From Chitinophagales bacterium (lineage in GTDB: Bacteria > Bacteroidota > Bacteroidia > Chitinophagales > JADIYW01), in the NCBI GenBank assembly GCA_023957215.1, contig JAMLHH010000003.1:337-64336 (forward strand): DNA of 64,000 nt. Reading direction: 5' to 3'. Position 1 is the first letter of the stretch. Each line of letters begins with the position of its first letter. Below the pieces are notes generated by a model. That model searched no databases. It was not told the DNA's origin and was given only the letters and a program-made list of their open reading frames with translations. This document shows positions 4,285 to 56,759 of this stretch, one piece after another. A program made the translations under genes and the position numbers.

Positions 4285-5433
4285 CTATTGACCAACTATC
4301 ACTTTTTTCACACCGGAAAATTCCGGTGAAATAATTTGTACCAAATAAAGACCTTTTGCTATATCAGAAACATTAATAGATATGGAAGAATTATCTATAT
4401 GCCCATTTTTTATAGTCTTACCATTCACATCTAACAATGAATATGTACCATGCACTATATTTTTGAATTGAAGATTAAAAGAAGAACTTGACGGATTGGG
4501 ATAAACTTCAAAGTTATCACTTAAAACACCTTCTTTGATTGAAGTAGCAACACTAACAGGTCTGGAGTGTTGTCTAAAAAACCTCCATATTTCTTCACTT
4601 GCAATAAAATCCATACAAGTATTTCCATTGGATGAAATAGCTAATGGAGACCCGGGCCACGTATGTCCACCATTTTTTACTTTGAAAAATTCAACAGTAT
4701 GACCATCTATTCCACCTGTATAAGTCTGATGTTCTGCATTACAAAAATCAAACTTATTAGTATTAGGAACTTGTCTTGTTATAGGTTCAGGATTACATTG
4801 ATTTTCATTGACCCAGAAAGAAACAAGATCTACTGCCGGAATTGTAAACAAGTCACCATAATAGGACCCTACCGGATCCTTAGTTCCAAAAATAGACATC
4901 ACGGGAATAGGATAAGCAGGATAGCAAAATGGAGTGGTGGACATCCCACCGCTTACAGAAGCAACTGCTGCAAAACGATTACTTTTACAAGCCAAATAGA
5001 TACTCATCGTAGCTCCATTGGATATCCCTGTACTATACACTCTATTTGGATCAATATTAAAATGTGCAGACATAGTATCTATAACTGTTTCAATAAATCC
5101 AACATCATCAACACCATTTGGATACCAATTAGGATTCCAATATTTAAGTTTTGTAACAGGTTCTTGAGTACCTTGTGGTAACACCATTATAAATCCAGCA
5201 GTATCAGCAATAGGTTGAAAGTTAGAATATATTAACTGCTGTAAATTATCTGATGAATAGCCATGTAAATTAACAATTAAAGAGGTGGGCTTGTCTGGTG
5301 AGTATGATTTAGGAACATAGTAAATATATGTACGGGTAAATCCTTGATAAGTAAAAGCTCCTTTGAGTAGTTCTTGACCATAAGAATTAATTACAAATAT
5401 CAATGAAAGATAAAGGGCAAAAGTCTTTTTCAT
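4285..5433 (-). CDS. Secreted esterase, PHB depolymerase/LpqC family, with T9SS C-terminal sorting domain
   Basis: 382 aa. Signal peptide MKKTFALYLSLIFVINSYGQ and a nucleophile elbow GISNG in VYSTGISNGATMS. The C-terminus VYPNPSSSSFNLQF...GLYLVQIISPEFSGVKKVIVGQ is Por_Secre_tail-like. Confidence 0.8.
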   Translation of the reverse strand: MKKTFALYLSLIFVINSYGQELLKGAFTYQGFTRTYIYYVPKSYSPDKPTSLIVNLHGYSSDNLQQLIYSNFQPIADTAGFIMVLPQGTQEPVTKLKYWNPNWYPNGVDDVGFIETVIDTMSAHFNIDPNRVYSTGISNGATMSIYLACKSNRFAAVASVSGGMSTTPFCYPAYPIPVMSIFGTKDPVGSYYGDLFTIPAVDLVSFWVNENQCNPEPITRQVPNTNKFDFCNAEHQTYTGGIDGHTVEFFKVKNGGHTWPGSPLAISSNGNTCMDFIASEEIWRFFRQHSRPVSVATSIKEGVLSDNFEVYPNPSSSSFNLQFKNIVHGTYSLLDVNGKTIKNGHIDNSSISINVSDIAKGLYLVQIISPEFSGVKKVIVGQ

Positions 5434-6751: not shown

Positions 6752-8057
6752 TTATTGCTTAATAAATTTACCGACATAGACCTCATTCGTTTGCAAATCT
6801 GAAATTTGGACAACATGAATTCCCGTCGGAATTTGAGAAGTATTTTGTACAATCTGTCTTCCGAGATAGCTATTTTTAATAATTAACTTCCCTGATAAAT
6901 CATAAATTTCAACATTCCAATTTTTAACGTCCGGCATATTGATGCGAAGCTCATTTTCAATGGGATTAGGATAAATATTCACATCCAATTTTTTCACATC
7001 TTTAATTGCTGTTGGTGTAGCTTGTTTTTCACAAGTCACTTGTTTAAAAAGAAATTCGGCAATTCCATTTAATACACGGTCATATTTTTCTTTGTCAATA
7101 AAATTGGCCTGACTGACCAGATCCGAAATATCCAAATTTAAAAAAGGAACATGTCCTCCCCCCTCAAAAATCATAAATTCAGAATCAATACCTTCCATCA
7201 GACACTTTTCATGGATTCGCTTACTACCATACATATCCGGAGCCGCAGTTGCTCCAAAGAGTGGTGAGCCATAATCAAATGGCACAAAATCGTCTTGAGT
7301 TCCATGAATATGAAGCAGTTTTACGTCAGTATGTTTTATAAAACTAGTATCTACTAATGCTCCTGAAATATTAAAGAAACCTTTAAGAACATTACCTTAA
7401 CCACAAAATTTTTCTGCCAAAACTTCATCTATTCTTCCATCATCAACTTCTCTTGCCCATTTGGCAAATTGCTCACCTAAATCATCCGCTTTATTTAAGA
7501 AAATTCCATGCAGATCTATCACACTACCGGCAGATGAACCACCACCGAACATTTCATTTTTATTGATTCTGTATGGATTTCCATTATCTATTTGAGATAA
7601 GACATGGCAAACTAAATCATTGGCATCCAAAGTGGCTTCCACAACAACCTTTATCAAATCTTCTTCTTTTTGGAAACCATTCAGATTCAGCAAACCTCTA
7701 TAATCAGGTGTAATCACCACATAGCCCATTTTCGCCAAAGATTTGGCCAAATCAAGAATATCCGGACTGTTTTTTCACTGCATCTATAAAAGCTCCTCCA
7801 TGCCATAAAACTATCAAAGGTCTAAGAGTGGCAGTATCACCTTTAGGAGCATACACATCATATCTTAAAGTCGGACCTCCATGATATTTAGTCCAAGCAT
7901 TAAAACCTTTATTGCCGTGAAACTCTATCGAAGAAAAAACCTTACTTCTATACCTTTGACTACATTCTTCATTTTGGGCAAAGGATATATCACAAAAAAC
8001 AAGCCCAATCAATAAGAGTATTAAACGCTTTAAAAGCATTCTTTTACACATATTCAT
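6752..8057 (-). pseudogene. Alpha/beta-hydrolase (HGG...GxSxG esterase/lipase) with T9SS C-terminal domain, paralog A; disrupted by a +1 frameshift and an in-frame TAA
   Basis: Three ORF pieces (7752-8114, 7397-7750, 6752-7285) are colinear with paralog B. There is a frameshift at the T6 run 7770-7775 (A6 on the coding strand) and an in-frame TAA at 7397-7399 (FCG*GNVLKGFFNISG versus B FCGHKNAIKGFINISG). Motifs present: LWHGGAF, GSSAG, and a YPNP... tail. Confidence 0.8.
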
Positions 8058-8073
8058 TATTTTATATCGAAAT

Positions 8074-9382
8074 TTATTTAGTAATCTTACCTGTAAAAAC
8101 TTTTTCAGGTGCATTTACATCAAAAACCTGAATAACATATAGCCCTGCATGGATTTGTTGTGTAGTTTGCGTATGTCGAATACCTTGAAAGTTATTTTGT
8201 AAAATCATTTTCCCTGATAAGTCAAAAATCTGTACTTGCCAGCTTTTAGCTTCCGGCATTGTGATTTGGAAATTATCACCTATCGGATTGGGATAAAAGG
8301 ATAAATCTGCAAACCGGGTATTTTTGATTCCGGTCGGAGTCACTTCTCTTTTTTCACAAGTAATTTGGTCAAACAAGAAATCTGAAATAACTTTCATTGT
8401 TAACTGATAATTCTCATCATTGATAAGTCCCAAACCATATTTAAGAATACTTCCCAAATCTAAGTTCATAAAAGGAACATGACCCAAACCTTTAGAAAAT
8501 AGAGCTTCAGAATGCATTCCTAACTCTAACAGCTTTTCATGTACCGGTTTACTACCATATAAGGATGGTGCAGAAGTGATACCGCCTAATGGTTTACCAT
8601 AGTTAAAAAGTACGATATTATCAGCAGTTCTGCTGAATGCTTTAAAAATGTGAAATAGGAACAGGTTTTATAAAACTGGTATCTAAAATTCCACCAGAAA
8701 TATTAATAAATCCTTTTATCGCATTTTTATGACCACAAAATTTATTACTGATCAATTCATCTGCTTCGCCGTTATCCACTTCTCTCGCCCATTTTGCATA
8801 TTGTTCGCCCAAATCATCGAGACTCGGTAAAAGAAGTGCATGCAAACCGGTCACTGCACCTCCGGAAACCCCTCCTGCAAATATTTCATCCTTATTGATT
8901 CTATAAGGATTCCCCCCATTTTCTATTTGATCTAAGATGTGACACACAGCTCTATTGGCATCTATGGCACTTCCAACCACTTCTTTGATAAGCCCGTCAT
9001 CATTAAACATATCCATGACATCCCTCACCCCTCTATAATCAGGAGAAATAGCAACATAGCCCATTCTTGCCAAATCTTTAGCCATCATCACTATATCAGG
9101 ACTCTCCTTGGTAAACATATCCAAATAAGCTCCTCCATGCCATAAAATGACCAATGGTCGTAAAGTTGCAGTATCATTTTTAGGAAAATAAACATCATAT
9201 CTGAGAGGTCTAATCCCACCATTGGAAGTCACCCATTGTCCGAAAGATACATTACCCTCCATACCCACACTATTGAATATTTTATCCCTGTACCTCATCG
9301 TACATTCATATTCCTGTGCCTCGGAAAAGCTGAAAATGAAGGTCAATGTAAGGATTAAAAAGAAAGTAAAGACTTTATTCAT
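8074..9382 (-). pseudogene. Alpha/beta-hydrolase esterase/lipase with T9SS C-terminal domain, paralog B; disrupted by a +1 frameshift
   Basis: ORFs 8642-9382 and 8074-8517 are two halves of one gene. The downstream frame is open upstream to 8667 and reads ...HIFKAFSRTADNIVLFNYGKPLGGITSAPSLYGSKPVHEKLLELGMHSEALF. The shift must lie within 8645-8667 (CATTTTTAAAG on the coding strand). Motifs present: LWHGGAY, GVSGG, and a YPNP... tail. Confidence 0.8.
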
Positions 9383-9495
9383 TTTAGATAATTTTACATA
9401 AAACTAATAAAAATTAAATGTTTGCATAGCATTTTAAATGTAATTTTTTTAACAATGTTATGTTTAAGTAGTTTATTATATTGTCATGGTTATTT

Positions 9496-19158: not shown

Positions 19159-20028
19159 CTAAAGCATCCACCTATTTATACTCAAATATTTAAGAATCAA
19201 TAAATAGGGTATAATTTTGAAAGTGCAAATGTACAAAATAAAACTAATAAAGTTGATATCTACTTCATCATTTCCTAATTTTTTACTCCGATAAACGGCC
19301 ATAAGTGTCAATAAGGTAACAGATATTCCCGAAATGTATAGAATAACTGTTTTACTTATTAAAAAACCATTGATACTCAATATCAAAAATATCAAACTTA
19401 TCAGAAGCCAAAACCATGTGGTGATGATAATATATTGGGTGAAATATGGCTTAAAAAGTTGCTCCATTCCCAAAACAGCCTGTGTGAAAAATTCAAGAAA
19501 AGAAATGCATAAAAAGAAGATATTGATAACAACAAAAAGATTGACAAATTCAAACAAGGTAGAAAATTTAAAGGTATGTGACAGACTATCCGTTATATAA
19601 AATATAATGGCAGTCAAAGACAAGCTTCGTACTATAAACAATAAGGTAATAGGTAATAAATCAGTATATTTCCGGCTCTTGTACAGTGTTTCAAAGTTTT
19701 TAAACTTGACGATAGATTCAATATTATTTTTTAAATAAGTCGGATACAAAAACTTTAGGATAATAAAAATAATGGCAATAGACAACATGATAAAAGCCTC
19801 GTAATGTAAAGGTTGTTTTATCTTGATTTGCTGTACGTCCCATTGTGGGTTTTCAATAATATTGACACCATTAACACGGGAATGAATAAGCTCTATCTGA
19901 GTAGCAGACGAGTTATTCACAACAAACGAATCTTGAAATGCCGGACTAAATTCCATTTTTGCACTCATTGTAAGAGATGAGCAAGCAACTATCCATACCA
20001 ATAAGAGTTTTTTAAAAAATATTGACAT
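19159..20028 (-). CDS. DUF4271-like polytopic membrane protein
   Basis: Multiple hydrophobic helices. I chose the start at ATG 20028 (MSIFFKKLLLVW...); the ORF track extends to 20091 inside the upstream gene. Confidence 0.55.
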   Translation of the reverse strand: MSIFFKKLLLVWIVACSSLTMSAKMEFSPAFQDSFVVNNSSATQIELIHSRVNGVNIIENPQWDVQQIKIKQPLHYEAFIMLSIAIIFIILKFLYPTYLKNNIESIVKFKNFETLYKSRKYTDLLPITLLFIVRSLSLTAIIFYITDSLSHTFKFSTLFEFVNLFVVINIFFLCISFLEFFTQAVLGMEQLFKPYFTQYIIITTWFWLLISLIFLILSINGFLISKTVILYISGISVTLLTLMAVYRSKKLGNDEVDINFISFILYICTFKIIPYLLILKYLSINRWML

Positions 20029-21754
20029 ATCCGAAGTGGATTTTTGAATTTTTAAATTCAATAGGATTTTTCTGTTGTCTTCCCACTGCATAACTCACTC
20101 CAAAGATACCCGCTTTTGTTTCAAAGGCGATTCCGGCACCAAATCCAAAGGGATAATCACTTCTCATTTTATCTTCAAATCTTCTCGATACAAATCCTGC
20201 ATCAAAGAAAGTATATAAGTAGGAATTTTGCTGTAAAATAAAGCGATATTCTGCTGTCATAACAGCATAATGTTGTGTAAAGATAGATTCTTCGTCAAAA
20301 CCTCTCAATAAATTAGCTCCACCTATTCTAAACATTTCGTTATCGAGAATACCGCCGTTAATTTTTGAAGCGGCTTTTAGACCTATTTTCATGACTTGTC
20401 TTGCTGACAATTTGACGTACGCATTCATGGATGCTCTTAAAAGTATCTGAAGTGATTTTAACTTAACAGTATCATATAAAGTATTAAACGGCTCACTCAT
20501 CGAAATGATTTTTCCATCAGGTTTTATTTTTCTCGTACCCACTTGGATACTGGTAGAGACTTCTACTCCTCTTCTCGGGTTAAACAAATAATCAAGATTT
20601 TCAAAATAGGCTTCAAAGCCATATAAAAGTGTATTCACATCTTGAATAGTGGGCAATGCTCTTCTATTTTTAACTGCCAAAGTATCCGTTTTCAAGACAA
20701 TCGTTTGAGTATTTTCGATATATGCTTTGATATAGTTATTTGCTTTGGTTCGAAAAGGGATTCCCAAAGTCCAATTAACATCCAAAAAAGTAGAGTCTCT
20801 TTTATCAAGATTAAATGAAGCCGCCGCACCAATGGGTGAGTTGAGGATATAGGGATAATTAAATTTGAGTTGAAGTGACTGAGAACTCGGTTGTATTCTC
20901 TTCCATTCCAAAAATATTTCTTCTCCTCTTTTAAAAGCATTTTGCAATTGCAGACGGGCTTCTCCGGTAATAAGCACTTTACCTGTTGCATTGTTATTAG
21001 GCAACAAACCGATTAGAAAATCAAATTTACTAACTTTCTTTTGAGCAAGATAAACGTTAAAAGTGGCTTTATCGCCCCGGAAATTTATATTGGGCGGTCT
21101 TATATAAGTCACAAATGGAAGTTTGCGTAACAATTGGTCACTCTCCATTAAAAGTGATTCTTTATAAGGCATTTCTTTTTTAATACCAAGATAGGATTTT
21201 AGAAAGGAAGTAGAAATTTTCCCATTTTCTCTGTTTTTTAAACTATCATAGAGAATCAAAGGGCCTTTTTCCAAGTGGGCATTCATTTTAATAGACAAGC
21301 TGTCAAAACTGAGTGTATCCCAATAAATTTCAGCAAAAGGATAGCCATTTTCCTGTAAATAAAGCAAACGCCTTTCTAATTGCATGTTTGTTTGTTCTAT
21401 ATTTTCAGTAGTGATATCTTTTGCCGACTTCTTATTTTTTTCGACCACCTCAGGCATAGCAACCGATATGTGATACTTTTCACCTATGAATAATTGTAAA
21501 TACATGGTGTCATTTACCACTAACCAAATCGAATCTGCCGACGCACTTAAATACATCTTCTGATGCAAATCATTTAAAGTCTGCTCTATGAACAAGGCTC
21601 TCTTTTGGGCAGAATTAAAATTTTTCATAGAAGGAATCCCAAAGTTTTTGAGCTTGGAATCACTTTTTATTTTTAGCCAATAATCATTATCGGCACTATA
21701 CAAAAGATGAATAGCAAAGAAATAAAACAATATGTAAGAAATATACCTTTTCAA
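20012..21754 (-). CDS. Omp85/BamA-family outer-membrane protein
   Basis: 580 aa with a signal peptide and a beta-barrel-type C-terminus ...FGFGAGIAFETKAGIFGVSYAVG...IHFGYVNIF ending in Phe. Confidence 0.7.
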   Translation of the reverse strand: MKRYISYILFYFFAIHLLYSADNDYWLKIKSDSKLKNFGIPSMKNFNSAQKRALFIEQTLNDLHQKMYLSASADSIWLVVNDTMYLQLFIGEKYHISVAMPEVVEKNKKSAKDITTENIEQTNMQLERRLLYLQENGYPFAEIYWDTLSFDSLSIKMNAHLEKGPLILYDSLKNRENGKISTSFLKSYLGIKKEMPYKESLLMESDQLLRKLPFVTYIRPPNINFRGDKATFNVYLAQKKVSKFDFLIGLLPNNNATGKVLITGEARLQLQNAFKRGEEIFLEWKRIQPSSQSLQLKFNYPYILNSPIGAAASFNLDKRDSTFLDVNWTLGIPFRTKANNYIKAYIENTQTIVLKTDTLAVKNRRALPTIQDVNTLLYGFEAYFENLDYLFNPRRGVEVSTSIQVGTRKIKPDGKIISMSEPFNTLYDTVKLKSLQILLRASMNAYVKLSARQVMKIGLKAASKINGGILDNEMFRIGGANLLRGFDEESIFTQHYAVMTAEYRFILQQNSYLYTFFDAGFVSRRFEDKMRSDYPFGFGAGIAFETKAGIFGVSYAVGRQQKNPIEFKNSKIHFGYVNIF

Positions 21755-21798
21755 TCTATCTATCGCTTAGGTTTCCTTAATTTTGATTTTATTTTCTG

Positions 21799-22929
21799 AT
21801 GTCCGGTATTTATATCCATATTCCTTTTTGTAAACAAGCATGTCACTATTGCAATTTTCACTTTTCTACCACTTTTGATAGTTATCGTAAAGATATGATA
21901 CAAGCTATCATACGTGAAATCGAATTACAGAAAGAATTCTTTGGAAGTAAAACGGAAATCAGTTCCGTATATTTTGGTGGTGGCACTCCATCTTTATTAA
22001 ATGCAGAAGAATTAGGCGACATTTGGCAAAGTTTGGAAAAAAACTTTGATTTATCACTACTAAAAGAAGTAACTCTTGAAGCGAACCCTGACGATATAGA
22101 CAGAGATTTTATCCAAACAATTTCCCAATCAAAAATAGACAGACTCAGCATAGGTGTACAATCTTTTGATGACTTAGATTTAGCCTATCTCAATCGGGTA
22201 CACGACAGCAAAAGGGCTTATAATAGTATTTCGCACGCAAAAGATATCGGCTTAGAAGTATCGACCGACTTGATTTTCGGCATTCCTACATCCGGAATTA
22301 CAAGATTAGAAAGTGATATCAGAAAATTGACACAAATGGATGTCAATCATATTTCTGTATATGCATTAACCGTAGAACTCAACACACCTCTTTATCATTT
22401 AATCAAACGGAAAAAGAAAGCTCCTATTATAGATGAAAAAGTGGTCAAAGAAATGTCTTGGCTCATGGACTTTATGCCATCATTGGGCTATCATCAATAC
22501 GAAATCTCCAACTTTGCTGCACCGGGTTATGAGGCAGTTCACAATAGTAGTTACTGGCATGGTGAAAAATACTTGGGAATAGGACCGTCTGCACATAGTT
22601 ATGATGGACAAAGTAGATATTGGAATATCTCTAATAATATCAAATATATCCATTCATTAAAAAACGGAGAAATACCTTGTGAAAAAGAGATATTGACTTC
22701 ACACGACCGGTATAATGAATGGATTATGACAAGACTTCGATTAAAGGAAGGTATAAATAGCGGGGAATTAGGGAAAATATTTGGAGAAAAGCTATATCAA
22801 TCTTTTTTAGAAAATGTACAAATTTTTGTCAAGGAAGAAAAGGTTAAACAATATGGATATCAATTTATATTGACAAATAGTGGTCGTTTGTGGGCTGATT
22901 ATATTTCATCAGAACTGTTTATAGAATAA
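21799..22929 (+). CDS. hemW: Radical SAM heme chaperone HemW (HemN-like, oxygen-independent coproporphyrinogen oxidase family)
   Basis: 376 aa starting MSGIYIHIPFCKQACHYCNF, which carries the CxxxCxxC radical-SAM cluster. Confidence 0.9.
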   Translation: MSGIYIHIPFCKQACHYCNFHFSTTFDSYRKDMIQAIIREIELQKEFFGSKTEISSVYFGGGTPSLLNAEELGDIWQSLEKNFDLSLLKEVTLEANPDDIDRDFIQTISQSKIDRLSIGVQSFDDLDLAYLNRVHDSKRAYNSISHAKDIGLEVSTDLIFGIPTSGITRLESDIRKLTQMDVNHISVYALTVELNTPLYHLIKRKKKAPIIDEKVVKEMSWLMDFMPSLGYHQYEISNFAAPGYEAVHNSSYWHGEKYLGIGPSAHSYDGQSRYWNISNNIKYIHSLKNGEIPCEKEILTSHDRYNEWIMTRLRLKEGINSGELGKIFGEKLYQSFLENVQIFVKEEKVKQYGYQFILTNSGRLWADYISSELFIE

Positions 22930-22930
22930 C

Positions 22931-22966
22931 AAAAAAAAGGGTCATCCAATTGGATGACCCTTTTTT
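22931..22966. terminator. Bidirectional rho-independent terminator between convergent hemW and aceA
   Basis: A perfect 22-nt palindrome GGGTCATCCAATTGGATGACCC (22939-22960) is flanked by A8 upstream and T6 downstream. Confidence 0.8.
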
Positions 22967-22984
22967 ATACTAACTAATCTATGA

Positions 22985-24562
22985 TTAGAATTGGTTAGAA
23001 GTATTTTTAGAACCACCTGCTTTAAGTGCATGCTCACCGGAGAAGAACTCTTTGTGATCATCACCCATATCAGAACCGGCCATACGTTGGTGTCTAACAG
23101 CAGCTACACCTTTACGGATTTCTTGACGTTGGATGTTTTTAACGTAAGCAAGCATACCTTCTTCACCGAAGTAACCTTCAGAAAGATCGTTCATTCTCAA
23201 TGCATTGGTATGATAAGTAGGCAATGTAATCAAGTGGTGGAAAATCCCTGCTTCACGAGCTGAGTCAGCTTGGAAAGTACGGATCTTGTCATCAGCTCTT
23301 CTACAAAGTTCAGTATCATCATATTTTACATTCATCAAGTCAGCACGATCGTAAGCAGATACATCTTCTCCTGCTTCTTTCATTGCATCATAAGCTTGTT
23401 GACGGAAGTTTAAAGTCCAGTTAAATGATGGAGAGTTGTTGTAAACCAATTTAGCGTTAGGAACTTGTTCTTTGATTCTATTTACCATGAGTGCAATTTG
23501 TTTCAAAGAAGGAACCGGAGTTTCAATCCACAACAAGTCAGCACCGGCTTTTAAAGCACCAACACAGTCAAATACGATACGGTCGATGTTAGTACCGGGA
23601 GCAAATTCATACAAACCATTTGCCAAACGTGAAGGTCGATGAAGTTTGCCATCTCTTTTGATAAGTACTTCATTATCTTTCGCATCAGCGATATTGATTT
23701 CTTCTGTTTTCAAGAAACTGATATATTTTGCTGCTGCATCGTTTTCATTGTGAGAAACAGGAACTGCTTGAGTCAAACTGGCTCCCTCTGAGTCTGTACG
23801 TGCAACGATGATACCGTCATCAACACCTAATTCCAAAAATGCATAACGCAAAGCGTTTAATTTGCCATGAAATTCTTCATGCGGAACTGTTACTTTACCA
23901 TCTTGGTGACCACATTGTTTTGCATCTGATACTTGGTTTTCAATTTGAAGAGCGCATGCACCTGCTTCAATCATTTTTTTAGCTAACAAATATGTAGCTT
24001 CTGCATTACCAAAACCAGCGTCAATATCAGCGATTATTGGAACTACGTGAGTTTGGAAATTATCGATTTGATCTTGAACATCTTCTCCCAATTCTTTACG
24101 ACGGAAAAGATCGTTTAGTTCTACTGCGTCAGCTTGTCTCAAAAATTGGTAGATTTCTTCGATAACCGCAGGAACTACCGTTTTTTCGTGCATAGATTGG
24201 TCAGGAAGCGGACCAAATTCAGAACGCAAAGCTGCTACCATCCATCCGGAAAGATAGATATAAGTTTTATCAGTAGTTTGTCTTTGTTTTTTTACTGCAA
24301 TCATTTTTTGTTGTGCAATAAATCCATGCCAGCACCCCAAAGATTGAGTATATTTAGAATGATCAGCATCGTATTCTGCCATGTCTTTACGCATAATAGC
24401 AGCGGTGTATCTTGCGATATCAAGACCTGTTCTAAAACGATTTTGAACGATCATACGAGCGGCATCTTCAGGAACAATATTATTCCAATTTTCGCCAAAT
24501 TTTGCTTTTAGCTCCTTCACTTTATCAAGTGCTGAAGTATAAACGGATTGTGAGTTTCCCAT
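22985..24562 (-). CDS. aceA: Isocitrate lyase
   Basis: 525 aa with the ICL signature region SDAKQCGHQDGK. It is adjacent to malate synthase. Confidence 0.92.
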   Translation of the reverse strand: MGNSQSVYTSALDKVKELKAKFGENWNNIVPEDAARMIVQNRFRTGLDIARYTAAIMRKDMAEYDADHSKYTQSLGCWHGFIAQQKMIAVKKQRQTTDKTYIYLSGWMVAALRSEFGPLPDQSMHEKTVVPAVIEEIYQFLRQADAVELNDLFRRKELGEDVQDQIDNFQTHVVPIIADIDAGFGNAEATYLLAKKMIEAGACALQIENQVSDAKQCGHQDGKVTVPHEEFHGKLNALRYAFLELGVDDGIIVARTDSEGASLTQAVPVSHNENDAAAKYISFLKTEEINIADAKDNEVLIKRDGKLHRPSRLANGLYEFAPGTNIDRIVFDCVGALKAGADLLWIETPVPSLKQIALMVNRIKEQVPNAKLVYNNSPSFNWTLNFRQQAYDAMKEAGEDVSAYDRADLMNVKYDDTELCRRADDKIRTFQADSAREAGIFHHLITLPTYHTNALRMNDLSEGYFGEEGMLAYVKNIQRQEIRKGVAAVRHQRMAGSDMGDDHKEFFSGEHALKAGGSKNTSNQF

Positions 24563-24602
24563 AAATAATTTGATATTATAAATAAATAAATTTTTTCTAT
24601 TT

Positions 24603-26201
24603 TTATATGAATTTGTATGCCTCCAAGGTCAAGAATTCTTCTAATTTTTCAGACAAACTCATTTTTGCAAAAAGTTCAATCGCCAAATCAAATTTGGTAT
24701 TTGCATAATCTGCACCATATTGTTGTTTATATGCTACTTTTTGCTCATCGATTAATTTTTCCACTAATTCTTTGGTCACTTTTGTGCCATCAGTCATAAT
24801 TGCTTTTGGATGATTGACCCATTGCCAAACTTGTGTTCTTGAAATTTCAGCAGTTGCAGCATCTTCCATCAAGTTATTGATAGGAACACAGCCATTTCCT
24901 CTCAACCATGCTTCCATATATCTGATACCTACATCAATATTGGTTTTTAGACCTTCTAATGTAATAGTTCCTTTTGGAATTTCAAGGAGATCAGAAGCGG
25001 TTACGCTTACATCTTCTCTTTTCACGTGGATTTGATTAGGAGTAGGCATGTATTTGTTAAACTCTCCCAATGCTACTGCGACCAATCCAGGGTGTGCCAC
25101 CCAAGTACCATCATGTCCTGCTTTCGCTTCTCTCTCTTTGTCTGCACGTACTTTTTCCAATGCGATATTGTTAGCTGCATCATCGCCTTTGATAGGAATT
25201 TGCGCTGCCATACCACCCATTGCGAATGCTTCACGTTTGTGGCAAGTTTGAATCACCAATTCAGTATAAGCTTTCATAAATGGAGAAGTCATACCGACTT
25301 GAGCTCTGTCCGGAATCAAGAACTCTGTATTATTTACTAATCTCTTAATGTATGAGAACAGGTAGTCCCAACGACCACAGTTTAGACCTGCGGAATGGTC
25401 TCTCAATTCAAATAAGATTTCATTTAATTGGAATGTAGCCATGATTGTTTCTATCAAAACAGTTCCTTTAATAGTTCCCAATGGAACATTTAATTGGCTT
25501 TGAGCTAAAATAAAGATATCATTCCATAATCTTGCTTCAAGATGATGCTCCATTTTTGGAAGATATAAATATAGACCACTGTCGTTTTTTAATCTAATAG
25601 CCACATTGTGGAAGAAATACAAACCGAAGTCCCAAATAGATGCTGACATGGGTTCACCATCTACTGTAACATTTTTTTCTTCCATGTGCCATCCTCTCGG
25701 ACGTACAAAAAGAACGGCTGTTTCATCATTTAATTGATAGCTTTTACCTCTTGCTTTATCTTCTAAAGAAATCGTTTTCAAGTTAGCATCAATCAAGTTA
25801 ATTTGACCTTCTATATTGTTTTCCCACGTCGGTGAATTAGCATCTTCTAAATCTGCCATAAAAACCTTTGCACCAGAGTTCAAAGCATTGATAATCATCT
25901 TACGGTCAACAGGGCCGGTGATCTCAACTCTTCTATCTTGAATATCAGCAGGACAAGGAGCTACAGTCCATTTACCATCACGAATAGATTTGGTTTCCGG
26001 CAAAAAGTCAGGAAGTACACCTTGGTCTAAGGTCTTTTGACGCTCAACTCTCGCTTGTAATAAATCTTTTCTTCTAGCATTAAATTTTCTGTGAAGTCCT
26101 ACAACAAATTCTAAGGCTTCAGGTGTCAAGATATTATCAAAACCCGGCTGAAAAGAACCGGTTATTTTAACACCTTCAGGAACTCTATAATTTTCTGACA
26201 T
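24603..26201 (-). CDS. aceB: Malate synthase A
   Basis: 532 aa with the malate synthase signature RDHSAGLNCGRWDYLFS. Confidence 0.92.
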   Translation of the reverse strand: MSENYRVPEGVKITGSFQPGFDNILTPEALEFVVGLHRKFNARRKDLLQARVERQKTLDQGVLPDFLPETKSIRDGKWTVAPCPADIQDRRVEITGPVDRKMIINALNSGAKVFMADLEDANSPTWENNIEGQINLIDANLKTISLEDKARGKSYQLNDETAVLFVRPRGWHMEEKNVTVDGEPMSASIWDFGLYFFHNVAIRLKNDSGLYLYLPKMEHHLEARLWNDIFILAQSQLNVPLGTIKGTVLIETIMATFQLNEILFELRDHSAGLNCGRWDYLFSYIKRLVNNTEFLIPDRAQVGMTSPFMKAYTELVIQTCHKREAFAMGGMAAQIPIKGDDAANNIALEKVRADKEREAKAGHDGTWVAHPGLVAVALGEFNKYMPTPNQIHVKREDVSVTASDLLEIPKGTITLEGLKTNIDVGIRYMEAWLRGNGCVPINNLMEDAATAEISRTQVWQWVNHPKAIMTDGTKVTKELVEKLIDEQKVAYKQQYGADYANTKFDLAIELFAKMSLSEKLEEFLTLEAYKFI

Positions 26202-26226
26202 TTTGAATATGGTTTAAAAATTTTTG

Positions 26227-26234
26227 CAAAAGTA
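26227..26234 (-). promoter_or_regulatory. Candidate Bacteroidota -7 promoter box (TAnnTTTG) upstream of aceB
   Basis: The minus strand reads TACTTTTG about 26 nt upstream of the aceB ATG. I found no good -33 TTG at canonical spacing. Confidence 0.3.
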
Positions 26235-26511
26235 ACAATTTATCTTTTTATTTCTAATGAATACGTGTTAAAGATAGATTAAACAATATTTATAACATAT
26301 TGATAAAAAGCGTAACATTCAATGCATTATCGTGTTAAAACCCTCTCTTCATTCACACTAATTTTATCAGATATATTCAATAACTACAATAGTGTTCATT
26401 TGTTTTCAATTTAAGTAATGATAACAGGCATATATACAACTGTTGTTTATAAAACTATTATTAGATTTGAAATGCCTGCACTTTCATTTTTAAAGGATTA
26501 TTTTTGTAACG

Positions 26512-27531
26512 ATGAATAAAACAAGTAAATTTCAAGTCTTGAGAAAACGACTCGCATCTTTTGGTATAGATGGTTTTATTACTTCACTATTGCTTTTCGT
26601 ACTTGTCGCTTATCTCAAACCTACCTGGGGTTCTGATGACTCTTCACCTTTCCCGCTAAAATCCATTTCTAACATTGGAGTTAGTTTCATCTTCTTTTTT
26701 TACGGATTGGGCTTGAGTATGGAAGAGTTGAAAGAAGGTTTAAGAAATATTCCTCTACACATTTTAGTTCAAGGAAGTTCATTTGTTTTATTTCCATTGA
26801 TTATTTGGACACTTCACTCTTTTATAAGTCCTGATCCCGATAATACAATATGGACGGGTATCTTCTTTTTGGCTGCTCTTCCATCTACTGTTTCATCTTC
26901 TGTGGTCATGGTTTCTATTGCCAAAGGTAATCTTCCCGCTGCCATTTTTAATGCCAGCATTTCTAGTCTGATAGGCGTGTTTATGACACCAATTATCGTG
27001 GAGGTTTTTATCAATACCAAAACAGATGGCGGTCAAGATTTAAGTAGTGCTATTTTAGACTTAATCATACAAGTAGTCATTCCGGTAGGTTTGGGTCTGT
27101 TTTTACATCGTTTCTTTGCGAAATGGATAAAAACGCAAGGCAAAAGAATTAAAATCTTTGATCAGGCAATTATTATTTTAATCGTATATCGCTCATTTAG
27201 CGAGTCTTTCGAAAAAGATTTATTCGCACTATTGGATTATTCATCTTTGTTCATTTTGAGTGCATCCATGTTAGGACTATTTTTTATGTTTTATTTTGGA
27301 GTTATGCGTATCGGAAAAACACTCAACTTCTCTATGGAAGATAGAATTACAGCTGCTTTCTGTGGCTCTAAAAAATCATTAGTACACGGTACTGTCATGT
27401 CTAATGTACTTTTTAAAGGTAGTTCTTCAGTAGGCATCATTCTCATGCCTCTGATGATTTATCACACACTCCAACTCATGGTAGGAACTGTTTTAGCAGA
27501 AAAATTGAGTAAAAGAGAAAGGCTAAGTTAA
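26512..27531 (+). CDS. Bile acid:sodium symporter (BASS/YfeH-like) family transporter
   Basis: 339 aa and polytopic. ALPSTVSSSVVMVSIAKGNLPAAIF is typical of the SBF/BASS family. Confidence 0.8.
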   Translation: MNKTSKFQVLRKRLASFGIDGFITSLLLFVLVAYLKPTWGSDDSSPFPLKSISNIGVSFIFFFYGLGLSMEELKEGLRNIPLHILVQGSSFVLFPLIIWTLHSFISPDPDNTIWTGIFFLAALPSTVSSSVVMVSIAKGNLPAAIFNASISSLIGVFMTPIIVEVFINTKTDGGQDLSSAILDLIIQVVIPVGLGLFLHRFFAKWIKTQGKRIKIFDQAIIILIVYRSFSESFEKDLFALLDYSSLFILSASMLGLFFMFYFGVMRIGKTLNFSMEDRITAAFCGSKKSLVHGTVMSNVLFKGSSSVGIILMPLMIYHTLQLMVGTVLAEKLSKRERLS

Positions 27532-27673
27532 GTAATCCGACCAGATTTGATAATAATAAAACCGTAAAGGGCGCAAAGCTCTCACAAAAGATTTTATTTA
27601 AGATATAAGTTCATAGTTATTTCTGAATAAATGTAATAGAGAGCCTATTTAAACTACATTGATAATATTTTTG

Positions 27674-27681
27674 TATATTTG
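27674..27681 (+). promoter_or_regulatory. Candidate -7 promoter box (TATATTTG) for the antitoxin-toxin operon
   Basis: Matches TAnnTTTG, 22 nt upstream of the antitoxin ATG at 27703. The -33 element is not convincing. Confidence 0.3.
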
Positions 27682-27801
27682 ATAGATAAGATAAAATCAA
27701 AAATGGAAAATGCCTTGCTATATCAACAAATTGCTGAACTTCCAGAAGCCCTCAAAAAAGAGGTGCAGAACTTTATTGATAATCTTATCAACAAAACGAT
27801 A

Positions 27802-28880
27802 ATATATCGAAATTATTTCGTATATTTACCTTATGAAAAAAAACAGATTTTCGCAAATTGGCAGAGCCTGAAAGATTAGCATTTCGTAAGCAGGCAATTC
27901 AACTGATACAATCAGGAAGAAGAAAGAAGTAGCAGAAATAATAGGGGTTAGACCAGCAACAATTACAGAGTGGTGGAGTGATTTTCAGCAAAACGGTCTA
28001 AAAGGGCTTATTTCCAAAAAGAAAGGAGTCAAGTCTGAGGATAAGAAACTATTAAGTAAAGAGCAGGAGCTTGCTATTCAGAAGATGATAGTAGATAAGA
28101 TGCTTGAACAATTAAAATTGGAATTTGCCTTGTGGACACGTAAAGCGGTGAAGGAGTTAGTGGAACGAGAGTTTGGAGTTATCCTTGCGATAACGACAAT
28201 GGGTGACTATTTGCGTAAATGGGGGTTTACCTCTCAAAAGCCCAAGAAGAAGGCTTATGAGCAATGCCCCAAAAAGGTTCAGCAATGGTTGGATAAAGAA
28301 TATCCCAAAATCAAAGAACTGGCAAAAAAAGAAAATGCTGAGATATATTGGGGCGCTGAGACGGGTGTAAGGAATCAGTGCAATCATGGCAGAAGTTACG
28401 CTCCCAAGGGTAAAACCCCCGTAAAGAAAAGCATGTCCAAGAAGTTTTCTGTCAATATGGTATCGGCCATAACCAATCAAGGAAAAGTTCAGTTTATGAT
28501 CTATTCCGATACAATGAATGCAGACAGATTTATTGAGTTTATGCAACAACTCATCAAATCATCGTCAAGAAAGGTATATCTGATTTTGGACAACCTCAGG
28601 GTTCATCACAGCAAGATTGTAAAAGAATGGATAGATGAAAATAAAGATACGATAGAACTATTCTATTTGCCCTCCTATTCTCCTGAACGAAACCCCGACG
28701 AATACCTTAATTGTGACCTAAAGTAAGGCTTATCCGTTAAAAAATCACCTAAAACCAAAGAAATACTCCAAACAAATGTCCAAAATCATATGGATATGCT
28801 TCAAGCAAATCCTGAAAGAGTAAGAAAATATCTCAAACACAAAGACATTCAATATGCTGCTTAATAATTACTTTCGGTAT
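27802..28880 (+). mobile_element. IS630-family insertion sequence (1079 bp) flanked by a TA target-site duplication
   Basis: TA at 27800-27801 and again at 28881-28882. The imperfect terminal inverted repeats are ATATATCGAAATTATTT (left) versus ATACCGAAAGTAATTATT (reverse complement of the right end). It encodes a DDE transposase, and removing the element plus one TA restores the host ORF frame. Confidence 0.7.
27833..28864 (+). pseudogene. IS630-family DDE transposase, degenerate (two frameshifts plus an in-frame TAA)
   Basis: The HTH part reads MKK(T)DFRKLAEPERLAFRKQAIQLIQSGRRKK only in the +1 frame, entered at the A8 run 27836-27843, and returns to frame 0 near 27917-27935. TAA at 28724-28726 cuts ...NPDEYLNCDLK*GLSVKK...KHKDIQYAA. 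Confidence 0.8.
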
Positions 28881-29013
28881 TATGTCGTCTGGCTAATAAC
28901 AAAAAAACAGCAATGAATAAGAAGTCCAAACATCCAAAGTTTGGGTTTTATAAAGGGAAAATTAAAATACAAGATGATTTTGATGAGCCTTTGGACGATT
29001 TTAAAGAGTATAT

Positions 29014-29400
29014 ATGATTGTAAATATATTAGATACACATACTCTATTATGGTTTCTTTCCGGTGATAAAAACCTGTCAAAACAAGCGCGTCAAAAAATT
29101 GAACATAAAGAAACACTTAACTTTATTAGTTTAGCATCACTTTGGAAAATTGCAATCAAAATTAGTTTGGGAAAATTAATCATAACATTTCCTTTTTCAG
29201 ATTTTAAAACGATTTTAGAAGATAACGGATTTGCAATTTTACCTATTGAATTTGAAGATATTCAATTCATTATTGAAATGGATTTTCACCATAGAGATCC
29301 TTTCGATAGACTGATAATTGCTCAAGCAATCCATCATCAGGCAGATGTTATCTCAAAAGATGAAAGTTTCAAACATTATGACATCAATGTTTATTGGTAA
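29014..29400 (+). CDS. vapC: Type II toxin, PIN-domain VapC family
   Basis: 128 aa starting MIVNILDTHTLLWFL, with HHRDPFDRLIIAQA (PIN acidic residues). The ATG overlaps the antitoxin stop. Confidence 0.85.
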   Translation: MIVNILDTHTLLWFLSGDKNLSKQARQKIEHKETLNFISLASLWKIAIKISLGKLIITFPFSDFKTILEDNGFAILPIEFEDIQFIIEMDFHHRDPFDRLIIAQAIHHQADVISKDESFKHYDINVYW

Positions 29401-32585: not shown

Positions 32586-35500
32586 ATGAGAGCCAAGTCC
32601 CTTCTTCTGTTTTCTTTACTTTTTTTCTATTTAACCAAAATAGATGCTCAAGGTATTCAGGTGGATGAGATCCCGTTGAATAATATAGATGCGAGAATGT
32701 CCTTTGAACAAGATGATTATTATATTCTTCAGATTGATAAAAAGACTTCCGTTGGGCAACTAAAGAATTTTCATACACTCGGTAATCAATGGATAGCAAT
32801 GAGGTGGAAAGATATCCAAGAGCAAGGACTATTGTTAAACAATCAGATTTTAAAGTTTGGAAGACTGATACCGTCCTCAAAAATAAGTAATGCACTTGAT
32901 TACGATTTTGACCTTAATAAACGATACAAATCACATGAAACTTTATGGTTTTACGTTCAGACATGGGGAACAAAAGACGAAACTCAGGCACTTCTAAAAA
33001 CTTTGGAAATTAGTGATTTTTCTTGGGACAATAACAGCCAGCTATTAAAAGTCTCTGCCAATGACAGACAAATTAAAGAATTATCTCAAGTAAATTTTAT
33101 CTCTTACATCGAACCTATTTCAGAAAAGCGGACTCCACTCCTCAACACCATGAGATCTTTGATGAATATTGATATCGTTCAAAGTCCTGAACCACTCGGA
33201 TTGAATCTAAAGGGCGAAGATATCAATTTGGGGATTTGGGACGATGGAATAGGTGGATTCCATAAAGATTTGGAAGAAAACATCATCAATGTTGACAGGA
33301 ATTTTTATGGAGCGTCAGCTTCACAACACACTACTTTAACAACAGGTGCCATACTTTCAAAAGGACTTTTACGCCCGGACTTTATTGGAGCAGCTCCAAA
33401 AGCCAAAGCTTATATTTATGATTTTTTTGGCGAGGTCTTAAATCAGATTTTAGATGCCAACCAAAAGTACGATGTCTTTGCAACCAACCATTCATACAAT
33501 TTAGGAGATGCTTACAGATGTTTTTATGATTATCAGTATTCCACTGCCAGTACTCAGATAGATCAATTTGCTATTGACCATCCTCAGATTACAAATATAT
33601 TTGCAGCGGGCAATTCGGCACGAGATTGCCCTTATGATTTTAAAACCATTGTACCCGGATTTCAATATGGGAAAAATGTCATACTTGTCGGAAATTTGCA
33701 AAATAATGAAACTTTCTATCCCGGGAGTGCCAAAGGACCGACCAACGATGGCCGGTTTGCACCACATATCATGGCCAAAGGATCCAGTTCCTTTACACCG
33801 ACAACCGGATTTGTGCTTCCTACTCCGGTGGACGGATACACACACGGATATGGAACTTCTTTTGCTTCTCCTGTCGTAACAGGTGTCGTAGGATTAATGC
33901 AAGAGGCTTATTTGAAAAAACATAACGATTATCCACTTAATGCTACCATCAAAGTCATTTTATGTAATACTGCAAAAGATATCGGAAGAAAAGGTCCTGA
34001 TTACGATTATGGTTTTGGAAAATTAGATGCATACCAAGCTGTCAAATCTATTATAGATGAAAGCTATATAGAAGATGCTGTTTCAAATAATGAAGAAAAA
34101 AGCTTTGAAATACAAGTTCCTGATGGGGTTAAGGAATTGAAAGTACTTATCACGTGGAATGATATACCTGCATCTCTACCCAATGATAAAGTGTTGGTCA
34201 ATGATTTGGATTTAGAAGTTATTTCACCTGAAAGAACTTTTTTGCCCTTAGTACTCAATCCGAGTCAACCTGAAAGTCCGGCTGTCGAAGCGAGAGACAG
34301 CGTCAATAATATCGAACAAGTGGTCGTTAAAAATCCTCCAGCAGGAACTTATATCATCAAAGTAAAAGGTCATTTCGTCATCAATTCTCAGCAAGATTTT
34401 TCCATTTCCTACTGGTTGAATCCGGATGAGTTTAAATGGAATTATCCTCTGAAAGATAATATTTTAAATGCAAACGAGAGAAATATTCTTAGATGGAGAG
34501 CTGAGACAGATATCAGTTATTTAGATTTAGAATATTCTTTAGATGATGGTCATCAATGGATAAGTATCGGTCGTCAATTACCTGACTCTAACTACTATAC
34601 TTGGACGACTCCGTCCGGTCATTATAGAAATGTTGTAGTCAGAGCATTGCGTCCAGACGGCTCGGTTTTATCAGTGTCAGATAAATTTGCAATAAGTCCG
34701 TTGTTGACTATCAAGGCAAGTGCTTGTTTTGGACATATCACAGCGACATGGGATTCTATTGGTGCAGATCAGTATATTTTATCTGTTTTGAATGATAAAA
34801 ACGAGTGGGAAGACATAGGTGTTACTAATGAAAATAAGTGGATTGTTAATCATTTAAAGTTAGGTCAGGAGTATTATTTTGCCGTCAGACCCGTCTTCAA
34901 TACTTGGGAAGGCAAAAGAAGTTATGCTGTAAAACTCACTTATACAAATGCCGGAAATTGCTCCTTGGATGAAAAAGAGATGGCAGTCACATCTATCACA
35001 CCTCAAGAAGGAGCCATACAATCCGATTATGCATTGAAAGACGATGAAACTCTGCATTTTGAAATCCGAAACTTTTCTTCATTCCCAATTCCCAATGTAA
35101 AATTATTTTACCAAGTAGATCAAGAAGATGTTCATGAAGTCGATCTAAATATATTGACCAAAAATCAAGTTAAAAATTACACTTCTACCGAAACGTATCA
35201 TTTCTCAAAACAGGGAATTTATCAAGTACACGCATGGTTGACAAGTACTGATACGGATGTGATATCAGACACTTTGATTCATTATATATATCAGAAAGAA
35301 TCAGCAGTAGCATCTTTTCCTTATTTTCAAGATTTTGAATCTACAGATGATACCTTATTGCTTACTTCAAATACAGTAGGCATTGAAAAAGCACCCGAAT
35401 GGGATTATATCAAAACCGGGACGGGTAGATTATTTAATTTTATTTCTTCATCCTTTTCACCCAACGGGAAAAAAGCTTTAACAATTGACTCTTATATGAA

Positions 35501-52155: not shown

Positions 52156-52217
52156 AATACAAATGGTTTAAATATAGTTAGTTAGTTAGGAATTTCCTAT
52201 TTTATTCTTCTTTACAG

Positions 52218-52289
<72 letters not shown>

Positions 52290-52299
52290 TTAGTTTTTG

Positions 52300-52372
52300 A
52301 GCGGATGACGAGGCTCGAACCCGCGACCCTCAGCTTGGAAGGCTGATGCTCTACCAACTGAGCTACATCCGC
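52300..52372 (-). tRNA. tRNA-Gly (anticodon TCC)
   Basis: Reverse complement GCGGATGTAGCTCAGTTGGTAGAGCATCAGCCTTCCAAGCTGAGGGTCGCGGGTTCGAGCCTCGTCATCCGCT. The anticodon loop is CTTCCAA. Confidence 0.9.
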
Positions 52373-52389
52373 AAACTTACGAAAACAAA

Positions 52390-52475
52390 TGGTGGGAGGA
52401 ACAGGATTCGAACCTGTGAAGGTATACACCAACAGATTTACAGTCTGTCCTCGTTGGCCGCTTGAGTATCCTCCC
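52390..52475 (-). tRNA. tRNA-Tyr (anticodon GTA), class II with long variable arm and encoded CCA
   Basis: Reverse complement GGGAGGATACTCAAGCGGCCAACGAGGACAGACTGTAAATCTGT...ACAGGTTCGAATCCTGTTCCTCCCACCA. The anticodon loop is CTGTAAA. Confidence 0.88.
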
Positions 52476-52496
52476 CCAAGTTTTCTAACAAAAACG

Positions 52497-52569
52497 AGCC
52501 AGCAGAGGGACTCGAACCCCCGACCTGCTGATTACAAATCAGCAGCTCTACCAACTGAGCTATGCTGGC
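52497..52569 (-). tRNA. tRNA-Thr (anticodon TGT)
   Basis: Reverse complement GCCAGCATAGCTCAGTTGGTAGAGCTGCTGATTTGTAATCAGCAGGTCGGGGGTTCGAGTCCCTCTGCTGGCT. The anticodon loop is TTTGTAA. Confidence 0.9.
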
Positions 52570-52637
52570 CTAATATTATTAGTAATATTTGTAAGAACTC
52601 TTCTCTTCAAAAAGATTCAGCTCTTTGAATTGAGGTG

Positions 52638-52667
52638 CAAATTTACTACTAATTTTTAGATTACAAA
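52638..52667 (-). promoter_or_regulatory. Candidate Bacteroidota sigma-A promoter for the tRNA-tuf transcription unit
   Basis: The minus strand reads TTTG-N18-TAAATTTG, matching the -33 TTTG / -7 TAnnTTTG consensus. It lies about 70 nt upstream of the tRNA-Thr(TGT) 5' end. Confidence 0.45.
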
Positions 52668-52685
52668 GCTTATTGGTGTAAATTT

Positions 52686-52979
52686 TTAATTTTTATTCTT
52701 AATTCTTTCTAATTGTCTTTTTAATGAGTCAACAGCCAAGTCCACCGACTCTTCAAAAACTTTTGCTTTCTCTTTTGCAATTATCACGTTGCCGGGAATA
52801 CTGGTCTTAATCAGCACCACTTTATCTCTCACTTGCGTATTGAGATTTTCAAGACTCAATACTACATTGGAATCAATAATCTTGTCATAAAACAAGGTAA
52901 GTTTGTTTACTTTTTTTTCAATAAAATCCAACAATTTTTGATCTGCTGTAAAATGTACTGTTTGAATGTTTACTTTCAT
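52686..52979 (-). CDS. hpf: Ribosome hibernation promoting factor (short HPF/RaiA)
   Basis: 97 aa starting MKVNIQTVHFTADQKLLDFIEKKVNKL. Confidence 0.88.
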   Translation of the reverse strand: MKVNIQTVHFTADQKLLDFIEKKVNKLTLFYDKIIDSNVVLSLENLNTQVRDKVVLIKTSIPGNVIIAKEKAKVFEESVDLAVDSLKRQLERIKNKN

Positions 52980-52983
52980 AACT

Positions 52984-53868
52984 TTAAGCTTTAGGATGTG
53001 AATTTTTAAAAATTTCTTTTAACTTTTCTATTGTATTATGTGTATATATTTGAGTAGATGCAAGACTTGCATGCCCCAATAATTCTTTTACATCATTTAA
53101 AGGTGCGCCATTATTAGCCATATGTGTTGCAAACGTATGTCGCAAAACGTGCGGGCTTTTCTGAATTTTGACTCCACCATTTTTCAGGTTTTCTCTTACA
53201 ATTCTATAAATGAGTTCGGGATAGGTTTTGACTCCTTTATCGGTGAGAATCACCGGACTATTTTTGGAGGCGACACCAAATGTATTTGCAACGATATCGG
53301 CATACGTGTCGAGTGCATTTTTCAATCTCGATCCCATAGGTACTACCCGCTCTTTTCCACCTTTTCCAAAAATCCGAATCTGCATCAAGCTTTGGTCAAT
53401 ATCTTCCCATTTAAGATTGACCAATTCTTGTCGTCTTAATCCCAAATCATATAAGACCTCAATCACAATCCAATCTCGACATCGAGAAAACGAATTGTCT
53501 TTGGGCTCTACATCCTTCAAGACATTTTCAATAGTGTTGCTATCTATATATTTTGGCAGGCGTTGTGGCAACTTAGGTGTATATACATTTTTGGCGGGAT
53601 TTGTTTTCACTAATCCCTTGTGGATGGCTAACCTATAAAAGGTTTTTACAGCAGATAATTTCCTATGAATCGATGAAGATTTGATATCATTTTCAACCAA
53701 TTCTACTATCCATCGTCTGACATCTTTAGAGTGTACCAAATAAAAATTCTCAATTTCCCTCTCTTTTATAAAATCGGAAAATTGAGAAATATCACTTAAA
53801 TAGGCTTTTACTGTGTGAGCAGAAAAGCGTTTCTCATAAATCAAATATTCTTCAAAATCCTTTATCAT
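52984..53868 (-). CDS. Tyrosine site-specific recombinase, XerC/XerD family
   Basis: 294 aa with HVLRHTFATHMANNG...LGHASLASTQIYTH, which carries the R-H-R-Y catalytic set. Confidence 0.88.
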   Translation of the reverse strand: MIKDFEEYLIYEKRFSAHTVKAYLSDISQFSDFIKEREIENFYLVHSKDVRRWIVELVENDIKSSSIHRKLSAVKTFYRLAIHKGLVKTNPAKNVYTPKLPQRLPKYIDSNTIENVLKDVEPKDNSFSRCRDWIVIEVLYDLGLRRQELVNLKWEDIDQSLMQIRIFGKGGKERVVPMGSRLKNALDTYADIVANTFGVASKNSPVILTDKGVKTYPELIYRIVRENLKNGGVKIQKSPHVLRHTFATHMANNGAPLNDVKELLGHASLASTQIYTHNTIEKLKEIFKNSHPKA

Positions 53869-55818: not shown

Positions 55819-55922
55819 CTTAAACATAAATATGTATTTTTGCACAAAATAAACATTTAAGACTATCTTGGTGACGTAAGTCTGTCACAAAACACAAAAT
55901 CAAAAAGTAAATACTTTCTAAA

Positions 55923-56747: not shown

Positions 56748-56759
56748 AAGTTTTTTAAG

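Follow-up and report, generated by a model that had tools for sequence, protein, structure and literature searches.

Ordinary bacterial pseudogenes form by nonsense mutations and by homopolymer slippage in AT-rich genomes, and recoding of TGA or TAG occurs in some bacteria and phages. Exposure of Flavobacterium columnare to phage selects for mutants with indels, point mutations or deletions in gldB, gldG, gldM, gldN and sprA (bioRxiv 10.1101/2020.10.02.323337). Here we analysed a stretch of 64,000 nucleotides from a Chitinophagales bacterium (assembly GCA_023957215.1, contig JAMLHH010000003.1, positions 337 to 64,336), which is called the window throughout and which carries the porP-gldK-gldL-gldM-gldN operon of the type IX secretion system (T9SS). 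A first-pass annotation had described seven premature in-frame stop codons in four genes of this window and had offered three explanations: recent decay of the T9SS together with part of its cargo, a process biased towards the creation of TAA, and errors in the consensus sequence. The first of these is supported by our data, since lesions lie in gldK, in gldN and in two esterase genes with a sorting domain, and in addition in a dead insertion sequence copy. With a probability of about three in four, gldK, gldN, the two tandem esterase genes and one IS630 copy acquired ordinary recent loss-of-function mutations after they had become dispensable or disadvantageous.

All seven stops (six TAA, one TAG) are present in the sequence. 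On the minus strand, TAA 7397-7399 interrupts an esterase gene, TAA 13050-13052, TAG 13044-13046, TAA 12999-13001 and TAA 12984-12986 interrupt gldN, and TAA 16515-16517 interrupts gldK; on the plus strand, TAA 28724-28726 interrupts an IS630 transposase gene. Past each stop homology resumes in the same frame, and GldK and GldN of the relatives each gave a single tblastn alignment across the stops. The bases 3' of the stops (C, C, C, T, G, G, G), the anticodons of the five tRNAs in the window (CCA, GGT, TCC, GTA, TGT), the function of TAA as true terminator of tuf, rpoB, rplL, rplK and gldM and the uninterrupted state of the housekeeping block (rpoC, rpoB, rplL, rplJ, rplA, rplK, nusG, tuf) had also been described, and all of this was confirmed.

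What did not hold was the proposed unusual excess of nonsense changes relative to indels. We found at least four frame-breaking indels in three of the genes (one in the first esterase gene, one in a second esterase gene, two in the IS630 gene), three of which lie within or beside A-runs of 6-8 nucleotides. Additional length changes are present in gldN, and the gldN stops are tied to them. Clean nonsense substitutions number only three, which are TAT>TAA in gldK and CAA>TAA in both the esterase and the IS630 gene. The lesion set is a normal mixture, and the pattern of stops alone, all of them frame-preserving, arises from an incomplete reading of the same genes. As a practical lesson, short patches that are out of frame or scrambled can mimic runs of in-frame nonsense codons in AT-rich genes. 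A census of long open reading frame (ORF) pairs separated by a stop also flagged positions 55911-57527; these are two adjacent genes in the same frame (methyltransferase, glycosyltransferase), and no premature stop is involved.

In a species-representative collection, the nearest genomes are uncultured Chitinophagales/Saprospiraceae metagenome-assembled genomes with identities of 53% for GldM and 77% for RpoB. Closer relatives, 79-83% identical in GldK, were found among metagenome assemblies in a search of 5.8 billion proteins, and their syntenic loci (L081-L090) were used for comparison. The gldK pseudogene (15924-17213, minus strand, 429 codons) codes for a lipoprotein with an FGE-sulfatase domain and a lipobox-like cysteine at its N-terminus (LLISCNKK). 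Along its full length (100%) it shares 81-83% identity with PF03781 proteins of 425 amino acids, some of which are named GldK at their source, and the order porP-gldK-gldL-gldM-gldN is the same as in the relatives. Both the protein and its place in the operon are those of GldK, and the frame that a functional GldK needs is interrupted by the single internal TAA (16515-16517). This stop stands in the middle of the FGE-sulfatase domain at a tyrosine that is invariant in 28 homologs (HPAYD[DE]YPVVGV). The five close relatives all have TAT or TAC here, so one substitution by A at the third position (T>A starting from TAT, the majority codon) suffices to explain the stop. At the 136 positions that are invariant in 29 sequences, Y216F and the stop are the only departures. 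Two further candidates were rejected for this site. A mutation shower beside the stop (Y216F, R222I, Y230N, Y233*) was not supported by a permutation scan (P = 0.19), and adenine mutagenesis of the diversity-generating retroelement type, to which the FGE-sulfatase fold of GldK had drawn attention, does not fit, since the changes are not confined to adenines of one strand.

The gldN pseudogene (12615-13526, minus strand, 303 codons) is located downstream of gldM, and residues 87-302 of its conceptual translation match the GldN domain PF19841 (E = 9.9e-67). Its frame is broken in the middle of the gene, where four stops are present and 36 nucleotides are missing inside the domain. Outside this lesion zone the gene is about 63% identical overall to its relatives and carries no further stop or shift. 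The four stops span 23 of the 303 codons (P about 0.002 if they were independent) and fall into two patches on either side of a perfectly conserved island, NPDILIPTV. Patch 1 (13035-13061, minus strand) measures 27 nucleotides versus 39 in five relatives, a loss of 12, and contains TAA 13050-13052 and TAG 13044-13046 beside an A6 run. Patch 2 (12984-13007, minus strand) measures 24 nucleotides versus 48 in the same number of relatives, a loss of 24, and contains TAA 12999-13001 and TAA 12984-12986. When patch 1 was aligned to the relatives in the gldN frame, its similarity did not exceed that of shuffled sequence (943 of 2000 shuffles), and the shuffle test for patch 2 was not significant (394 of 2000). 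For patches that are shortened in this way and lack detectable in-frame homology, the earlier count of four separate nonsense changes cannot be upheld.

A codon-blind nucleotide alignment of patch 2 with MAFFT placed gaps of 8 and 16 nucleotides around TTTAATTATACAAAC, which corresponds to TTCAATTATGAAAAC in the relatives. In the shifted frame TTTAATTATACAAAC reads FNYTN versus FNYEN of the relatives, and according to this alignment TAA 12999-13001 is G TTT AAT in the wrong register. Similarly, patch 1 reads KNNDSV in the shifted frame versus SSDTV of the relatives. An out-of-frame model with compensating indels was favoured by 3-9 score units in a custom frameshift-aware aligner, which also made spurious shift pairs on the esterases. 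The shifted-frame matches are statistically insecure, and it is suggestive only that the gldN stops may be out-of-frame segments bracketed by compensating indels. All that we claim from these alignments is that the stops belong to one compact complex lesion with a net loss of 36 nucleotides and are not four independent nonsense substitutions.

Template switching, inversion or an ectopic copy as origin of the gldN patches was considered and rejected: no inverted or direct repeat of note was found, the window contains no further copy, and translations of the reverse strand show no homology. Ribosomal hopping or a +1 shift at AAA AAA TAA was rejected as well, since each alternative path hits more stops. 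The surroundings of the gene also differ. Downstream of gldN the relatives (L081, 14605-15752) carry two ORFs on the same strand (79 and about 303 amino acids) followed by proS, and in the window (11520-12553, plus strand) a convergent uvrB, an ORF of 91 amino acids and a gene of the metallo-beta-lactamase fold are found.

The first of the two tandem esterase pseudogenes (6752-8114, minus strand; estA in the first-pass annotation) combines a BD-FAE domain with a T9SS C-terminal sorting domain. Its in-frame stop (7397-7399) had been described correctly and a frameshift at the A-run 7770-7775 had been overlooked. Two tblastn alignments of this gene fall in different frames, and the N-terminal 120 codons are in another frame than the remainder. 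At the A-run the homologs read DAIKKNSPD and the window has GTGAAAAAACAGTCC (AAAAAAC), which fits a loss of two nucleotides from the run. The closest homolog (P0241, 72% identical) has glutamine at the stop site (FCGQGN), and in the light of this residue the stop is likely a CAA>TAA change. The second pseudogene (8074-9382, minus strand) is a paralog directly upstream of estA; neither the gene nor its frameshift near 8664-8671 was on the earlier list. Its HIHG motif region is degenerate (HIFKAFSR in place of HIHG) and small in-frame indels are also present; judged by these features, its decay looks older than that of estA. Like other T9SS cargo, both pseudogenes carry Por_Secre_tail (PF18962) at the C-terminus (E = 2.5e-9 and 4.2e-9). 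When compared with the relatives, the esterase genes have moved relative to hemN, and like the differences downstream of gldN this points to a local rearrangement around the operon.

The IS630-family transposase gene (27834-28864, plus strand) is defective at three sites. Its ATG is followed by A8 (27836-27843) versus G plus A6 in the relatives, a +1 change, and the next ~30 codons (KKTDFRKLAEPERLAFRKQAIQLIQSGRRKK) are out of frame until a loss of four nucleotides near 27924-27931 restores the first frame. When the gene is read from its ATG, a TGA follows after 12 codons, and the start-codon frame meets two extra stops, one of them TGA. When the frames are joined, the product has 344 amino acids, which is the length of the family, and matches its relatives with 100% coverage and 81% identity; the joined ORF contains DDE_3 (E = 5.4e-37), HTH_33, HTH_28 and HTH_29, as is expected of an IS630 transposase. 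At the third site, TAA 28724-28726, all six homologs inspected have glutamine (NCDLKQGLS), and the stop is therefore a CAA>TAA change. This stop had been recorded before and the two 5' frame-breaking indels had been missed. We looked for terminal inverted repeats of this copy and found none. In the source annotation the gene (P0213, 254 amino acids, MTEWW...) starts at an ATT codon at 27962. Directly downstream (28914-29400, plus strand) follow a short ORF (MNKKSKHPKFGFYKGKIKIQDDFDEPLDDFKEYI) and an ORF of 128 amino acids that resembles a PIN-domain VapC toxin by eye; by this resemblance the two ORFs are likely a toxin-antitoxin pair.

All of these lesions lie within five dispensable genes (5.9 kb), mostly with several lesions per gene (two in estA, three in the IS630 gene, at least two in gldN). 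About 54 kb of other coding sequence, including 8 kb of rpoBC and a 5.3-kb subtilase gene, carries neither a stop nor a shift. The affected genes are functionally coherent, as the damage affects two of the four genes in one operon and, besides these, two cargo proteins with Por_Secre_tail. In the same operon, gldM (13549-15180, TAA-terminated), gldL (15215-15868) and porP/sprF (17312-18313), all on the minus strand, are intact, and GldL, GldM and PorP show no window-unique change at positions that are invariant in about 30 homologs. We tested GldK and GldN against the relatives for accelerated divergence compared with their neighbours and found none. Two putative cargo genes are also intact, namely the subtilase gene (32586-37844, plus strand, 1752 amino acids), with a weak similarity to the T9SS sorting domain (21.8 bits, under the Pfam cut-off of 27), and an esterase gene (4285-5433, minus strand, 382 amino acids) with a T9SS C-terminal sorting domain (E = 3.7e-13). 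The conservation of GldK, GldL, GldM and PorP, together with the intact subtilase and sorting-domain esterase, argues that purifying selection acted on the system up to the very recent past. Most simply, these sequences would be read as a type IX secretion system that was lost recently and whose cargo genes are starting to follow. The sequences demonstrate the lesions, the ancestral states and the limitation of the damage to these genes. We infer that the interrupted genes no longer give functional proteins and that the inactivation was recent; it may have been driven by relaxed selection or by selection against the T9SS or surface proteins, for instance by phage. GldL itself has 217 amino acids versus 182-205 in the relatives and is about 50% identical to them, well under GldK (81%) or GldM (74%); the divergence is located past the conserved N-terminal GldL_N domain.

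As for the mechanism, the mixture comprises three single-base nonsense substitutions (CAA>TAA twice, TAT>TAA once), a minimum of four indels that break the frame, of which three sit within or beside A-runs as replication slippage would leave them, and the compact complex lesion of gldN, in which 12 and 24 nucleotides are missing from two patches that now give stops. The AT-rich codon usage makes TAA the commonest nonsense product, the ribosome would terminate at the stops with nothing being recoded, and the dead genes would gather multiple lesions. A special bias towards TAA, the second of the explanations offered before, is unneeded, since the clean events are two CAA>TAA transitions and one TAT>TAA change and since codon usage alone gives about 50% TAA. 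From the codon usage of the intact genes in the window, the expected share of TAA among single-base nonsense changes is 0.49-0.53. The observed share (six of seven) does not differ significantly from this expectation (binomial P about 0.06), and the value is less meaningful still because the gldN stops are not independent of each other.

Several observations weigh against ordinary recent decay. The tight clustering in gldN (four stops and 36 lost nucleotides within about 78 nucleotides) is unexpected under uniform neutral decay, so that a local event has to be invoked. The two lesion sets of gldN and the one of the IS630 gene are net in-frame, and if every one of these three arose from two independent indels, the chance of this would be about 1/27; among the five lesion sets with indels, three such cases are not significant (P about 0.2). 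In gldK only one lesion interrupts a sequence that is perfectly conserved elsewhere, just as one base error would look, and this gene is the weakest case for a real mutation. Our analysis covers the window, and a second copy of gldK or gldN may lie elsewhere in the genome. Finally, no second strain or assembly of the same species that would verify the lesions independently was found: the best matches found by searching genome and metagenome contigs for the exact DNA pattern, by searching for the exact GldM protein, by comparing GldK with the 5.8 billion proteins and by a GldM metagenome scan had 74-83% protein identity.

The single lesion of gldK also bears on the possibility that the stops and small indels are consensus or assembly errors, homopolymer miscounts or low-coverage patches, in an organism whose genes are intact. 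The sequence comes from a draft contig of 129,527 nucleotides, three single-site indels lie in or next to A-runs of 6-8 nucleotides as is classic for long-read errors, and the gldN patches appear scrambled rather than mutated. Such errors should spread over all coding DNA, however, and we found that none of the 143 homopolymers of at least six nucleotides in intact genes (eight of them with at least eight nucleotides) is shifted. The long essential ORFs are all uninterrupted, and RpoB has only three unique changes at invariant positions, all of them conservative. In contrast, the damaged genes are functionally linked and carry several lesions each, losses of 8-24 nucleotides are atypical of base-calling, and the degenerate motif region and in-frame indels of the second esterase gene point to an older decay. 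The distribution of the lesions by gene function argues against random consensus error, which fits poorly and which we consider improbable.

Still less probable is an unusual mode of clustered mutation. Each net in-frame compact lesion set (the two gldN patches and the 5' end of the IS630 gene) would then have been left by one local event, for example by repair synthesis of low fidelity or by the imprecise excision of an inserted element, in a lineage in which active selection, for instance by phage, favours the loss of the T9SS.

That the interrupted T9SS genes still work is more doubtful again. GldN might be made as two polypeptides, with termination at 13050-13052 and a restart for example at ATG 12950, the untranslated spacer between them decaying, or a paralog elsewhere might cover the loss. 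All the damage in gldN indeed falls into a single short zone with a well-conserved half of the gene on either side, and gldL, gldM, porP and the large cargo genes are intact and conserved. However, this zone is part of the only Pfam GldN domain (residues 87-302), and the segment between the last stop and ATG 12950 (EVWYFNKRTST) has kept a coding-like conservation, so that no long-standing spacer exists. For GldK a split is implausible with a stop at an invariant tyrosine amid the FGE-sulfatase domain, and no paralog was seen within the window.

Programmed recoding, in which readthrough or reassignment of TAA/TAG or a ribosomal shift or hop yields full-length proteins, is close to refuted: although in-frame homology continues past every stop and three lesion sets are net in-frame, TAA closes 31 of the 44 intact genes in the window (70%; TAG 7, TGA 6), which excludes its global reassignment as noted before, no suppressor tRNA with a UUA or CUA anticodon is among the five tRNAs of the window, the replaced residues differ (tyrosine in gldK, glutamine in the IS630 and esterase genes, unalignable or lysine positions in gldN), which likewise excludes reassignment, every relative examined reads uninterrupted sense codons at all sites so that no recoding site is conserved, the nucleotide 3' of the stop is variable, true frameshifts occur in the same genes, and the shifted frame in gldN meets further stops.

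The remainder of the window has a gene set of the Bacteroidota type at a G+C content of 35%. It contains secDF (truncated at the left edge), uvrB, hemN and the genes for isocitrate lyase and malate synthase, and a tuf-secE-nusG-rplKAJL-rpoBC block that is accompanied by the five tRNAs. A tRNA cluster (Thr-Gly-Tyr-Thr, 52217-52569) lies upstream of tuf and is adjoined by genes for a ribosome hibernation factor (52686-52979) and an XerC/D-type tyrosine recombinase (52984-53868; whole region 52217-53868, minus strand). The intact HEM4 gene (uroporphyrinogen-III synthase, 18345-19136, minus strand) shows clustered window-unique substitutions at positions that are invariant in five relatives (8 substitutions in 18 codons, permutation P = 0.0016), and it was the only clustered gene among seven tested. 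An ORF of 1121 amino acids (57547-60912, minus strand) has no Pfam match; its orthologs in the relatives are 57% identical and give only a faint match to Tricorn_N. On one relative's metagenome contig (L083, 19970-21017) MeaB is split into ORFs of 149 and 157 amino acids, either by a lesion or by an assembly difference, and in L081, L082 and L084, which are otherwise identical to L083, it is a single ORF of 348 amino acids.

Taken at face value, the pattern described in the first-pass annotation would have meant recoding or a peculiar stop-generating mutation process in Bacteroidota, and the evidence points to neither of these. The window instead gives a picture of a secretion system at the beginning of its loss, in which gldK, gldN and two secreted esterases were apparently lost very recently while the remaining machinery and the large cargo genes are intact.

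How does this locus compare with known systems? With stop-codon reassignment or suppression, as in some bacteria and phages, it shares in-frame stops inside conserved genes followed by downstream homology. Unlike in such systems, the stop concerned is the main terminator here, the residues are inconsistent, the window contains no suppressor tRNA and the sites are not conserved. With the phage-selected F. columnare mutants (bioRxiv 10.1101/2020.10.02.323337) it has in common that the same machinery is hit by small insertions, deletions and truncating point mutations and that more than one gld gene can be hit per lineage. Those mutants are laboratory isolates with a known selective agent, whereas the window comes from an uncultured Chitinophagales-like lineage with best matches of 74-83% (GldM, GldK) and a multi-patch scramble in gldN. 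By this analogy phage-driven loss of the T9SS may be regarded as a possibility here, not as a finding. With ordinary bacterial pseudogenes the locus shares premature stops and A-run indels of 1-4 nucleotides, several hits per dead gene and an untouched set of housekeeping genes. Nothing essential sets it apart from them, only the compactness of the gldN lesion being atypical, and the finding is known biology.

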